Source: Fidelibacterota bacterium (GTDB lineage Bacteria; Fidelibacterota; Marinisomatia; Marinisomatales; TCS56). From it: 23,812 nt of DNA. Made by a program: the position numbers and the translations under genes. The stretch covers positions 1 through 23,812 of the forward strand of contig JBDRBK010000057.1 of assembly GCA_043822705.1 (NCBI GenBank), written 5' to 3'. Every line of letters begins with the position of its first letter. The first letter of the stretch is position 1. The notes beneath the pieces were generated by a model that saw only the letters and a program-made list of their open reading frames with translations, was not told the DNA's origin and ran no database searches. Shown here in pieces: positions 9,748-16,362 of this stretch.

Positions 9748-11754
<2,007 letters not shown>

Positions 11755-11853
11755 TTAGACCACGGAATACACCCGCCTGCGCTTCTTCGGCGGGCAGGCG
11801 GAATAACACGGAAGAAGAATATAATATTTAAAATTCTGAAAATCGATACTAAT

Positions 11854-11949
11854 TGTCATGCTGAGCGTAGCGAAGTATCTCTGGTAATAGTTGGTTTACA
11901 AAGCATAGGCCAGAGATTCTTCAACCGACAAGTCGGTTTCAGAATGACA
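11854..11949. repeat. REP-like palindromic element (TGTCAT-CTGAG...GAAG family)
   Basis: Nested inverted matches tgtcat/atgaca, ctga/tcag, gaag/cttc, atctctgg/ccagagat; related copies at 15039, 16284 and 20352. Confidence 0.75.
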
Positions 11950-11996: not shown

Positions 11997-12178
11997 TTCT
12001 GCGCCACCATGATCAGCGACGGCCTCAAGGATACCGGCCTGGCGGAGAATACGGCCTCGAAAGATATCGCGGAATATGTGGCTCAGGCACTGGGGTAGTT
12101 TAGACTACGGAATACACCCGCCTGCGCTTCGGCTTCGGCGGGCAGGCTGAATAACACGGCATAAGAAAATAATATTTA
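11997..12178 (+). pseudogene. Direct repeat copy 2: orphan, diverged 3' fragment of the oxidoreductase gene plus downstream hairpin
   Basis: 11997-12098 translates FCATMISDGLKDTGLAENTASKDIAEYVAQALG* versus FCATMISDGLKDTGLAETTTSKDIAEYVAQVLG* in the intact gene. Confidence 0.9.
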
Positions 12179-12213: not shown

Positions 12214-13026
12214 CTATAAAATACATTTTGATATTTGCCATGTGATGGCTAGTATTGTAGCAAGAGCTATCAGTAAAGAAAAATATAGAGGCACATTTTT
12301 TTCCGTAGCGGTAAATGATCTATATTTTTCTGGGCGAAGACCCTTCCCAAGTGAGATCCATTCAGCATTATAAATTTGGGCTCCTAATTTTTTTTCTAGT
12401 TGCAAAATTACATCATATTTCGCTTTGTTCAATTTACCGTAGTTATCAAGGAGATTTCTCCAAGAATTGCATAGGAGCATCCCAATAATAGAAAATCCGT
12501 ATAGAACCCATAATGTATTTAACCTAAGAGCATCAGATTTGGTCAAAAATCCAGATATAGCTATTAAACTACCAAGAGCAGTAATGAAAAAAGCATTAGT
12601 CTTCTGTCTTCTTTGAATTAGAGCTTCAGATGATTCCAGCATTATTTTATATAGATCCAATACATCTTCACTGTCACTTGAAAAGCAGGAGTCAAATTCA
12701 TTTTTATAATCATATAATAGTTTAAGCTTTTCTGCAGTATCTGTTTTTTCTCCATTTGGATATATTTCCAAAACTTCTTTACCTGATAGTATAGCTTTAT
12801 CAATCTCCCACTTTGCATTATCAGATTTTTCACATGAAGATCTATTATAAATAATGATGGCTTCTGCCTGATCTATTGCGTTTAATGCTTTATTTTTCCA
12901 TCGATTTCCACTAATACTATTAAGCATTACAATCTTGAATTTTATTGAATATTCTTTGGCAATACTCTTTAATGTTTTTCTTGCCTGTTTTTTATCTTTA
13001 AATCGATGAATAATAAATATTATCAT
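12214..13026 (-). CDS. TIR-like domain fused to a multi-TM membrane domain (resembles the RipA-family octameric membrane protein domain); putative defence effector
   Basis: N-term IFIIHRFKD...AIDQAEAIIIY...KSDNAKWEIDKA (TIR-like, Glu retained). C-term LYKIMLESSE...RRQKTNAFF-TM-TM-W..LLDNYGKLNKAKY..I..LEKKL....YNAEW...FT.TEKNVP-TM. AT-rich. Confidence 0.7.
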   Translation of the reverse strand: MIIFIIHRFKDKKQARKTLKSIAKEYSIKFKIVMLNSISGNRWKNKALNAIDQAEAIIIYNRSSCEKSDNAKWEIDKAILSGKEVLEIYPNGEKTDTAEKLKLLYDYKNEFDSCFSSDSEDVLDLYKIMLESSEALIQRRQKTNAFFITALGSLIAISGFLTKSDALRLNTLWVLYGFSIIGMLLCNSWRNLLDNYGKLNKAKYDVILQLEKKLGAQIYNAEWISLGKGLRPEKYRSFTATEKNVPLYFSLLIALATILAITWQISKCIL

Positions 13027-13035
13027 AAGATTTAA

Positions 13036-13425
13036 TTATCTATTACCTGCAATTAGACTCTTAAGATTATCCCATGTCCACTTGTAAATTGTATCTGATG
13101 ATTTTGCTGCTTTAGGTTTTTTGCATGTTTTCCCACTTCTTCCCCAAAGTAGGAAGTAGTTAACCTTTTCCTCTTGGGTGATTTCAACCTCAACGCTAAC
13201 ACCAGATGCAGTGTCGGTATGCTCACCGCAAATAACAATAACTACATCACATCCCTTTATTCTTGTACGAGCTTTCTTTTTCCAATCCTCAGAAATTGCT
13301 TCTTTAATTGAAAAATCAGCAATCTCAAACGGGGAGTCCGCGTTCTTAGCTTGTCCGACTAAGAGATTTTTTAAATCTAGGTCATGGTCGTAGTCAAAAC
13401 TTATAAATGTACGCTTTTTAGCCAT
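13036..13425 (-). CDS. Stand-alone TIR-domain protein (ThsB/MTH538/DUF1863-like)
   Basis: RTFISFDYDHD, DFSIKEA...WKKKARTRIKGCDVVIVICGEHT..ASGVSVEV, YKWTWDNLK; SD AGAGG upstream. Confidence 0.85.
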   Translation of the reverse strand: MAKKRTFISFDYDHDLDLKNLLVGQAKNADSPFEIADFSIKEAISEDWKKKARTRIKGCDVVIVICGEHTDTASGVSVEVEITQEEKVNYFLLWGRSGKTCKKPKAAKSSDTIYKWTWDNLKSLIAGNR

Positions 13426-13528: not shown

Positions 13529-13629
13529 TCTCCCGGAAACAAGATGGAATAAAATACGTGGTGGATACTTCCGCGCCCGGTGCAACGGCGGAGTTTATTG
13601 TTATTGGAGAGCTTTACGCAAATGGTTTT
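13529..13629 (-). promoter_or_regulatory. Repeated promoter/leader element, copy A (upstream of TIR operon)
   Basis: Colinear with 14322-14422 at constant offset 793; minus strand TTGCGT-N18-TAAACT then conserved GC-rich leader. Confidence 0.7.
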
Positions 13630-13689
13630 TTAATAGTCAAAATATTAGTTAAATGTCAGGTAAGTACGTTGTTTACTATTAGAAATAGT

Positions 13690-13995
13690 ATTGGCGTGAG
13701 ACTCTGGATTATAACCTATTAGTTAGGTATTCTAATCCAGAAATGGAAGCATCTACCGTTTGACGGGTAAATGCGTTTCCCATTTTTAACAATATACTTA
13801 CAAAAAATCTCTTTATAAGTATATTGCCTATGTGCATTCACTTTCATTTAATCACCTCCTTTCTTGGGACGCGGTTTGACCGGCTCTCCCAGGTGATCTC
13901 TCCGTTACGAAAAATCACGGAGAGAGCCAGTGAGTGACCGAATCGCCTAGAAAGGCGTGATAATAAGAGCGCCGCTAGTTTTATCTCACGCCAAT
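13690..13995 (-). ncRNA. Candidate highly structured RNA element (~306 nt) closed by a 12-bp inverted repeat and containing a small ORF
   Basis: ATTGGCGTGAGA (13690-13701) / TCTCACGCCAAT (13984-13995); long rod 13851-13961; hairpins 13790-13826, 13741-13785, 13703-13741. G-U wobbles form only on the minus strand. Confidence 0.7.
13719..13847 (-). CDS. Unannotated 42-aa basic small protein MKVNAHRQYTYKEIFCKYIVKNGKRIYPSNGRCFHFWIRIPN
   Basis: ATG at 13847, TAA at 13721-13719; SD AGAAAGGAGGTGAT (13864-13851) ends 3 nt before ATG. Below the ORF-track size cutoff. Confidence 0.7.
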   Translation of the reverse strand: MKVNAHRQYTYKEIFCKYIVKNGKRIYPSNGRCFHFWIRIPN

Positions 13996-14014
13996 TGTCA
14001 AAAACCTATTTTTG

Positions 14015-14284
14015 TTACTGAGAATGCCTACTTTTTTTCTTCGTAGAATCACCTTTTTCTCTATTAACCGAAGTTTTAAGAGCCTGTAGATTTCGGATAT
14101 CATCTGACCCACCTATAGCTGATGGTTTTATATGGTCTATTTCCCAACCCATTGTGGTATCTTTACCATATGAATCGTAACGAATTTTATTTCCATATGG
14201 GTCCTGACGATAATTATCGGGATTTTCCCCTTTAATTGGTTTAGCTTTATCCCACACCTTATCTTTTTGAGATTTATTAGCCAT
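14015..14284 (-). CDS. Minimal stand-alone HNH (H-N-N type) endonuclease
   Basis: GWEIDHIKP..GGSDDIRNLQAL...NREKG beta-beta-alpha-metal motif; 89 aa. Confidence 0.88.
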   Translation of the reverse strand: MANKSQKDKVWDKAKPIKGENPDNYRQDPYGNKIRYDSYGKDTTMGWEIDHIKPSAIGGSDDIRNLQALKTSVNREKGDSTKKKSRHSQ

Positions 14285-14321: not shown

Positions 14322-14422
14322 TCTCCCGGAAACAACCAACAGTAAAATACGTCAATGCATCTTCCGCGCCCGGTGCGACGGCGGAGTTTATTGTTTATTT
14401 ACGGCTTTAAGCAAGCGGTTTT
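14322..14422 (-). promoter_or_regulatory. Repeated promoter/leader element, copy B (upstream of HNH)
   Basis: Minus strand TTGCTT-N18-TAAACT; 35-nt core 14361-14395 differs by 1 nt from 13568-13602. Confidence 0.7.
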
Positions 14423-14504
14423 CTGATGGTTGATTTTGGTTGATGGATGTTGGATTGAAGCAGGGGAAAGCTGCGGAATAATGATTACAGCACTCCAATT
14501 GCTC

Positions 14505-14924
14505 GGGGAAGTGTTGCCTATTCCAGGAAATTCCTTCCCCGTGTTAGGGGAAACACTCCCCGATCAAAATAATTGTCCGCCCCATCTTGGGGAACTCTTC
14601 CCCCAGGTCGGGGAACCTTTGCCAAAGCAGGGGCAGGGCATAAATCATCTTGGGCGGACTTCGCCCAAACATGGGGAACCTTCGCCCAAGCAGGGGCAGG
14701 GTATAAATCATCTTGGGCGGACTTCGCCCATTCAAGGGAAGGTCGCACCCAAACATGGGGAACCTTTGCCCATGATTGGGAGAACCTTCCCCAATCATAA
14801 TAATTGTCCACCCCATCTTGGGGAACCTTTCCCCCAGGTCGGGGAAACCTTCCCCCAGGTCGGGGAACTCTTCCAGAAGGTAGGGGAGACCTTAGTCAAG
14901 GTCGTGGAACCTTTCCCCTTGGTA
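14505..14924. repeat. Tandem array of 20 degenerate 21-bp units, consensus ~GGGGAA-NNN-TTCCCC-N6
   Basis: Units start at 14505+21n without indels (e.g. 14589 ggggaactcttcccccaggtc, 14820 ggggaacctttcccccaggtc, 14841 ggggaaaccttcccccaggtc). Confidence 0.9.
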
Positions 14925-15038
14925 AAATCGATGTTTTGCCAGGTTGAAATGCAAATGCCGGAGAGACTTTTTCGTACCGACCGGCCGGCCGGCCCGCCGC
15001 AGGTACGCAGGCGGGGAAGCAGGTCTAATAAAATATAT

Positions 15039-15094
15039 CACCCTTCGATACGCCTTCGTTGACACTACGGCGCACAGGCAGGCTCAGGGTGACA
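15039..15094. repeat. REP-like element; near-identical inverted copy of 20352-20407
   Basis: cacccttcgatacgccttcgttgacactacggcgcacaggcaggctcagggtgaca matches the reverse complement of 20352-20407 with few mismatches. Confidence 0.8.
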
Positions 15095-16283: not shown

Positions 16284-16362
16284 ATGTCATGCTGAGCTTG
16301 TCGAAGCATGGAGCAGCATGTCTAATAAAATATATGACCCTTCGACTCGCTCAGTGTGACAT
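16284..16362. repeat. REP-like palindromic element (TGTCATGCTGAGC..TCGAAG family)
   Basis: atgtca/tgacat, ctgagc/gctcag and tcgaag/cttcga nested matches; shares gtctaataaaatatat.acccttcga with 15023-15048. Confidence 0.75.

Follow-up and report, generated by a model that had tools for sequence, protein, structure and literature searches.

The window analysed here is a 23,812-nt stretch of DNA (contig JBDRBK010000057.1) from a Fidelibacterota bacterium. It holds on its minus strand a small unit (13995–13690), predicted to be transcribed as an RNA of about 306 nt, which is very probably a stand-alone mRNA locked against its own translation. Under our reading of the whole, to which we give a probability of about 0.5, this mRNA is shut over a strong ribosome-binding site (RBS), would be opened by an RNase III-type cut and the loss of the 5′ piece, and would then yield a burst of a 42-amino-acid (aa) peptide that is a probable cytoplasmic toxin. 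The peptide is one of a large, so far unnamed family of soluble beta-strand peptides that occurs in several phyla as well as in prophages and insertion sequences (IS), and the family brings two undescribed conserved RNA architectures, both joining the ends of the message, with no antitoxin detected. The predicted OFF and ON folds, together with a candidate cut site, make the model directly testable.

A predicted closed RNA over a strong ribosome-binding site

The features of the unit are as follows (SD, Shine-Dalgarno sequence; ORF, open reading frame).

14003–14030, minus strand: putative weak sigma-70 promoter, −35 at 14030–14025 and −10 at 14008–14003 (our own scan; absent from the consensus-scan list)
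13983–13995, minus strand: 5′ arm, which closes with the 3′ arm and can pair with the anti-SD once the 3′ arm is gone (folding)
13949–13961, minus strand: anti-SD, 12 bp with the SD, in a helix reaching over the start codon (folding)
13879–13931, minus strand: rod apex, with helices of 12 bp and 10 bp, a 1 × 2 internal loop at 13892/13891 and a 6-nt loop (folding, covariation)
13865–13891, minus strand: alternative ON hairpin that cannot form together with the rod, its closing pair 1 nt ahead of the SD (folding, −10.3 kcal/mol)
13851–13864, minus strand: 14-nt SD, the complement of the resident 16S 3′ end (sequence match)
13719–13847, minus strand: ORF of the basic, aromatic, beta-strand peptide of 42 aa, with coding hairpins (ORF, family, model)
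13690–13702, minus strand: 3′ arm, located past the stop codon and forming 13 bp with the 5′ arm (folding)
13687–13891, strand not given: identical 205-nt metatranscriptome contig (run X1, depth 28)
13797–13825, plus strand: possible antisense promoter inside the ORF, 9/12 consensus (promoter scan; not conserved in relatives)

The plus strand at 13851–13864 reads ATCACCTCCTTTCT, and its minus-strand complement is the 14-nt SD. This 14-mer has two copies in the 3.34-Mb genome, one at the SD site and one at the 3′ terminus of the resident 16S rRNA (contig C141); by simple arithmetic, chance would give about 0.025 copies per genome. An earlier sequence-only reading of the window had proposed a perfect SD matching the 16S tail, and the match to the resident 16S end is exact. 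The SD ends 3 nt ahead of the ATG of the small ORF (13847–13719, minus strand), which encodes 42 aa, and once freed such an SD would be expected to drive strong translation. The same reading had paired the SD with 13961–13949, described as a mimic of the 16S tail. The pairing recurs as 12 bp (5 + 7, bulged) in the predicted rod; the likeness to the 16S tail is not separate evidence, because it follows from complementarity to a perfect SD. The extent first proposed (13719–13961) took in the core of the unit and missed both the 5′ arm (13995–13983) and the 3′ arm (13702–13690).

Folding of 14000–13660 gave one closed structure of −144.8 kcal/mol (z −15.8, 0 of 100 shuffles as good). In this prediction the 5′ arm forms 13 bp with the 3′ arm behind the stop codon, a rod hides both SD and start codon, and hairpins fill the coding region; the SD-burying rod by itself reaches −65.5 kcal/mol (z −7.2, 0 of 200 shuffles equal). 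The putative promoter ends 7 nt ahead of the 5′ arm, and transcription would begin at this arm, judging by the position of the −10 box in relatives. The full-length RNA would then close through arm/arm and anti-SD/SD pairing, the rod and the coding hairpins, a prediction that covariation supports. Predicted folding and the same geometry in relatives both speak for the very strong, normally silent RBS that had been suggested from the letters. The unit is single-copy, an RNA model having found no second one in the genome, and Rfam returned no match at gathering score, and none to an antitoxin, in the window region or the leaders of 18 loci, two permissive scans included.

Relatives sharing the fold

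Relatives were collected as 296 loci, of which 56 are genomic, 160 viral (the 80 top matches from each of two sets, of 196 and 109) and 80 metagenomic (the top matches among 292); together with the window these amount to 147 distinct peptides. A fold class comprising 37 of the 147 distinct members, the window among them, was picked by folding geometry, the criteria being a 5′ arm (about −150 to −133) whose partner lies past the stop codon and SD pairing at about −117 to −93. The 37 class loci represent 12 arm-sequence types, with 23 loci in one type, and hence are not independent; named members include Acidobacteria and Zixibacteria, and two loci (L100, L250) fit the class poorly. A TAnnnT box lay 5–8 nt ahead of the 5′ arm in 24 of the 37, compared with 28 of 511 control positions.

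Covariation supported the rod, with two-sided changes in 14 of 15 pairs of a 30-row alignment and 85% of rod cells paired, against 69.5% after shuffling and 49–57% after sliding, the structure having been derived from the same alignment that was used for the test. Native partners also paired more stably than swapped ones, at mean energies of −33.9 versus −17.6 kcal/mol for the rod, −19.5 versus −12.3 for anti-SD and SD, and −24.6 versus −16.1 for the 5′ and 3′ arms. The native partner was the best among dissimilar ones in 29/36 loci for the rod and 21/36 for anti-SD/SD. Run on 100 loci, the RNA model matched strongly at the peptide leader, with a few weak matches elsewhere. No DNA homologue of the unit was found in 60 relatives, and a peptide-profile search of 300 further genomes from the phylum gave nothing but three weak matches with internal stops.

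The exact length of the SD is not the conserved feature of the family, because the full 14-nt form is exceptional (2 of 147 distinct members); GAAAGGAG is present in 70 of the 147, and an SD is lacking in some members, certain Flavobacteria and Patescibacteria among them. Four SD-less members (L088, L093, L095, L103) sit directly behind a large gene, which before L088 is a class II ribonucleotide reductase and in L093 is similar by eye.

A conserved family of small basic peptides

A phmmer search yielded 87 representatives at 50% clustering, two of which are spurious long proteins, and a profile search raised the family to at least 608 proteins at 90% clustering. The profile matches listed are unnamed or hypothetical, bar two stray ZinT labels, and the family shares the consensus core EVFCRYIxKNGKRIYPKNxKxFHFWV. 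Comparison of the coding sequences pointed to a conserved gene under selection: the ratio of nonsynonymous to synonymous polymorphism (pN/pS) was 0.05 over 492 pairs, a figure biased by the gathering of loci through peptide similarity, and variation was highest at third positions. On these sequence comparisons, the 42-aa peptide is a real, conserved and selected gene product.

The peptide had been described from its translation as basic, aromatic and non-membrane, probably a beta-hairpin, and each trait was recovered. Its charge is +8, equal to the family median, and the aromatic residues are conserved. The best 19-residue hydropathy (−0.5 in the window, with a maximum of 0.93 among 147 peptides) failed the test for a membrane helix. 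The AlphaFold2 model is all-beta, with four short strands including a hairpin at 19–26 (predicted local distance difference test, 84).

The peptide had no match in Pfam, NCBIfam, PADLOC, the PDB by sequence, Foldseek against the PDB, or VIA-align wide, nor in an annotated phage collection, and the structure searches returned no nucleic-acid-binding fold. PHROGs held unnamed families only (phrog_30400, 14 of 79 members), BFVD a single uncharacterised homologue, and the ESM Atlas clusters without names and below 0.9; a plasmid search gave five matches, one of them clear, with H4 and H5 not confirmed. No description of the family was found in the literature, and none by peptide motif, large supplements and small-protein catalogues being partly covered. 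A search of three supplement files of PMC10690425 turned up none of six leader motifs. The family may already stand, without a function, in the catalogue PMC11364881.

By analogy with known toxin messages, the peptide probably acts as a cytoplasmic toxin; that it is toxic at all we rate an even chance. It would arrest growth, as addiction or abortive defence on behalf of the mobile DNA that carries it, a role suggested by RNA architecture and gene context only.

Proposed opening of the RNA by a 5′ cut

A groundwater metatranscriptome (run X1) contained one contig of 205 nt that is 100% identical to 13687–13891 (depth 28), the sole identical RNA contig within 11500–16500; runs X2 and X3 did not cover the unit and are uninformative. 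At one side the contig ends 3 nt past the predicted 3′ arm, and at the other it ends at the internal loop of the rod, 11 nt from the apical loop, where it starts exactly at the ON hairpin (13891–13865). We regard this end as a weak hint of processing. Exposing the RBS is predicted to cost 16.6 kcal/mol as long as the RNA is whole and 5.7 in the 205-nt piece; the family median drops from 16.75 to 7.15 after a modelled cut (n = 34). In 25 of 36 loci a hairpin of −6 kcal/mol or better, whose end pairs change, closes at most 4 nt from the SD, and the distance from the rod loop to the start of the ON hairpin is 9–16 nt in all 23 loci measured.

The genome encodes RNase III, an enzyme that activates translation in the leaders of phage T7 and adhE. 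By inference, the rod apex has the size of an RNase III substrate, and the rod helix measures 21 bp or more in every one of the 37 loci of the fold class, in keeping with the geometry of this enzyme. Substrates of RNase III present about 11 bp to the distal box and 22 bp in all, and loops permit single-strand cuts (PMC3867540); the modelled unit would likewise offer two helical turns, a candidate cut at about 11 bp and a single-strand cut at a loop. The cut would fall near 13892/13891, 11 nt from the loop, as one contig end and the helix geometry suggest, and decay of the 104-nt 5′ piece would let 13891–13865 refold into a predicted and conserved hairpin ending 1 nt before the SD. We put activation by a 5′ cut at a little under even odds.

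A second architecture in Bacteroidota

Bacteroidota members often carry a TAnnTTTG box at about −160 to −240, which we take to be the Bacteroidota promoter motif, and their 5′ end is predicted to pair with the SD, with several hairpins between. A leader hairpin and the terminator that follows the ORF have complementary loops, matching over at least 6 nt in 17/29 loci, compared with 38/800 swapped pairs, and over at least 7 nt in 8/29 compared with 2/800. These counts come from 35 hand-chosen loci, of which 29 gave both hairpins and four share one loop. A first test on whole leaders had given a modest signal (at least 7 nt in 9/40 versus 90/1560). With these covarying kissing loops, end-to-end contact therefore recurs in the family by a second means. 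Locked strong SDs are present in Bacteroidales members too, an order in which SD sequences are rarely used.

The kissing motif was seen at L036, L099, L102, L108, L004, L032, L244, L255, L257, L280, L096, L097, L106 and L113. A second loop pair, between the first and the fourth hairpin, was noticed by eye in Bacteroidota leaders, and the leader hairpin has a U-tract, as a terminator does.

Tentatively, and with clearly less confidence than for the cut, we suggest that this new and widespread beta-hairpin peptide family comprises antitoxin-free, self-locking toxins or effectors in which 5′–3′ contacts are made by a closing helix and an RNase III-cut rod or, in Bacteroidota, by kissing loops, the trigger being the state of the RNA rather than a partner RNA. 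If so, phage infection or transcription shut-off could set it off by shifting RNA decay.

Comparison with known toxin messages and alternative explanations

To our knowledge, almost every type I toxin characterised so far is a membrane helix checked by antisense RNA. A transmembrane helix is present in Hok, AapA, TisB, Ibs, Ldr and Fst, whereas the peptide here is without one. Closed mRNAs activated by processing are described for hok (PMC9841398), aapA (PMC6733600) and tisB (PMC4147584), and the T1TAdb description gives type I toxin mRNAs 150–400 nt and proteins 20–60 aa (PMC8594479). The predicted 306 nt and 42 aa lie within those sizes, and an SD sequestered with 5′–3′ pairing is predicted and covarying. 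We do not file the unit as a type I system, because the peptide fails the membrane-helix test, no conserved antitoxin was found and the toxin is a putative one.

The closest likeness is to hok/Sok of plasmid R1, which also has a closed, untranslatable full-length mRNA with 5′–3′ pairing and an anti-SD upstream of the SD, and where tac/ucb captures the anti-SD as the 5′ arm of the unit can (PMC9841398). Unlike hok/Sok, the unit showed neither a mok-like leader ORF nor a conserved antisense RNA, its peptide is basic and soluble with no membrane helix, and processing at the 5′ side has more in its favour than processing at the 3′ side. The aapA/IsoA system of Helicobacter shares a small ORF and a wholly folded mRNA whose long-distance 5′–3′ pairing needs processing, but its final anti-SD lies in the 3′ end, whereas here it lies about 100 nt upstream in the rod (PMC6733600), and the peptide families are unrelated. 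In contrast to tisB/IstR-1, no divergent complementary antitoxin was found in the flanks, and TisB is hydrophobic. SymE and RalR provide a precedent for cytoplasmic, non-membrane type I toxins; SymE has 113 aa, however, and the peptide here has no family or structure match (both comparisons from PMC4147584).

Several results weigh against a locked message opened by a 5′ cut and encoding a toxin. The two cut pieces cofold at −142.6 kcal/mol, versus −102.5 apart, and being some 40 kcal/mol more stable together they would not come open by the cut alone; decay of the 5′ piece must therefore be assumed. Only 5/34 loci come down to an opening cost of 5 kcal/mol or less through the modelled cut, and in L092 the cost rises; the ON hairpin, noticed only after the contig end had been seen, is absent in 11/36 loci, its segment beating 95% of shuffles in only 17/36. 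The X1 contig is one record from one run. True ends and strand cannot be read from a contig, the same end would result if reverse transcription or assembly broke off at the rod, and the host may not have been present in the sample. The native 5′/3′ arm pair was the best partner in only 10/36 loci, and a first, cruder test of 5′–3′ duplexes, which we judged too coarse, was passed by 5/63. No antisense promoter recurred at one position among relatives and no complementary RNA was found in the flanks (at least 13 nt in 1/37 loci), and therefore the check on which type I systems rely is missing. Family and structure searches found no known toxin resembling the peptide, and the pN/pS value carries the selection bias already given.

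An ordinary type I pair of the hok/aapA kind would account for the same closed RNA by 3′ trimming, which would free the 5′ arm to capture the anti-SD, with an undetected cis antisense RNA silencing the active form. We hold this to be possible though unlikely. Removal of the 3′ arm in the window is predicted to allow a 12-bp helix between the 5′ arm and the anti-SD, resembling tac/ucb/fbi of hok (PMC9841398), and to lower the RBS opening cost from 16.6 to 10.2 kcal/mol (14.9 if the 5′ arm is also gone). Such capture would explain the departure of the anti-SD from the 16S sequence; the mRNA and ORF sizes fit the T1TAdb description (PMC8594479), and the 9/12 candidate at 13797–13825 could serve as antisense promoter. 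However, the opening cost falls by at least 3 kcal/mol in only 9/34 loci, the position of the antisense promoter is not conserved, and the X1 contig retains the 3′ arm and is without the 5′ end. The peptide might instead bind RNA or DNA as a regulator, for example of its own RNA, a transposon or a prophage, and be held low by the structured leader. The median charge of +8, conserved aromatics and beta-hairpin would suit this, as would members beside IS transposases, XRE-IrrE pairs and nrdJ and members with no SD or clear lock, yet no partner gene is constant, no nucleic-acid-binding fold was matched, and an own promoter with 5′–3′ closure is, in the examples compared, a trait of toxin messages. 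A regulator seems improbable.

The sequence-only reading had also offered the peptide as an activator or inhibitor of the adjacent HNH nuclease, whose gene immediately precedes the unit in the same orientation, the two D3 repeats (listed below) enclosing both. A 43%-identical HNH precedes the unit at L160 and L161, but these are one element whose closest kin have other neighbours, and 294 of the 296 loci have no similar HNH in the DNA examined, which is short for many metagenome loci; the X1 contig, moreover, covers the unit and not the HNH. We consider a dedicated HNH partner very unlikely. That the inverted arms are the DNA ends of a miniature transposable element, with the fold incidental, is largely excluded: a 13-bp inverted match does stand at both ends and many relatives lie near IS elements, but the arms use G-U pairs and bulges, they begin just behind the −10 box, and the unit is single-copy in the genome.

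Genomic context

The unit sits in an AT-rich insertion, and the order in the window is D3 repeat, HNH, unit, D3 repeat, ThsB-like TIR and TIR-8xMP. The neighbouring features are listed here.

14322–14430, strand not given: repeat D3 of about 110 bp, upstream of the HNH gene (repeat search)
14015–14284, minus strand: stand-alone HNH nuclease gene, upstream neighbour of the unit and not a constant partner (domain match, locus comparison)
13529–13637, strand not given: repeat D3 of about 110 bp, between the unit and the TIR genes (repeat search)
12214–13425, minus strand: ThsB-like TIR (13036–13425) and TIR-8xMP (12214–13026), a defence-island context (domain matches)

The ThsB-like TIR and the TIR-8xMP fusion are likely a Thoeris-like or abortive defence pair without ThsA. 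The search for homologues and their gene neighbourhoods recovered the peptide family and no constant partner gene. Neighbours of the relatives vary (Pfam calls covering 71 + 30 chosen neighbours) and include IS1/IS1595 transposases, XRE-IrrE, ParE, restriction, HEPN, WYL, nrdJ and phage lysis genes, and some loci are prophages. No HNH or TIR homologue was found near the first 136 loci; an HNH homologue occurs at 2/296 (L160 and L161), upstream and on the same strand as in the window. Five members (L003, L020, L094, L107, L119) directly follow a gene for an IrrE/ImmA peptidase, in several cases accompanied by an XRE partner, and L134 and L138 show a similar IrrE/ImmA-like arrangement by eye.

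The D3 repeats have the same orientation and stand between accessory genes. Further copies occur in G000:C82 (96246–96332, 98174–98210) and four in G004 (L315, L319, L321, L322), and in C82 and G004:C34 two copies flank a related deaminase-like/ATP-binding gene. D3 resembles a cassette boundary or a small mobile repeat, and Rfam gave no match to it within the window region. At the edge of the AT-rich insertion, the end of an Fe-S oxidoreductase gene and the sequence downstream of it are duplicated (11700–11830 and 12044–12178, about 345 bp apart, 84–97% identical). A repeat array with a 21-nt period at 14535–14923 has open frames on both strands and is probably non-coding or a degenerate low-complexity gene. 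Short dispersed REP-like repeats were seen at 11854–11878, 16285–16350 and 15013–15053, with several more copies in the genome.
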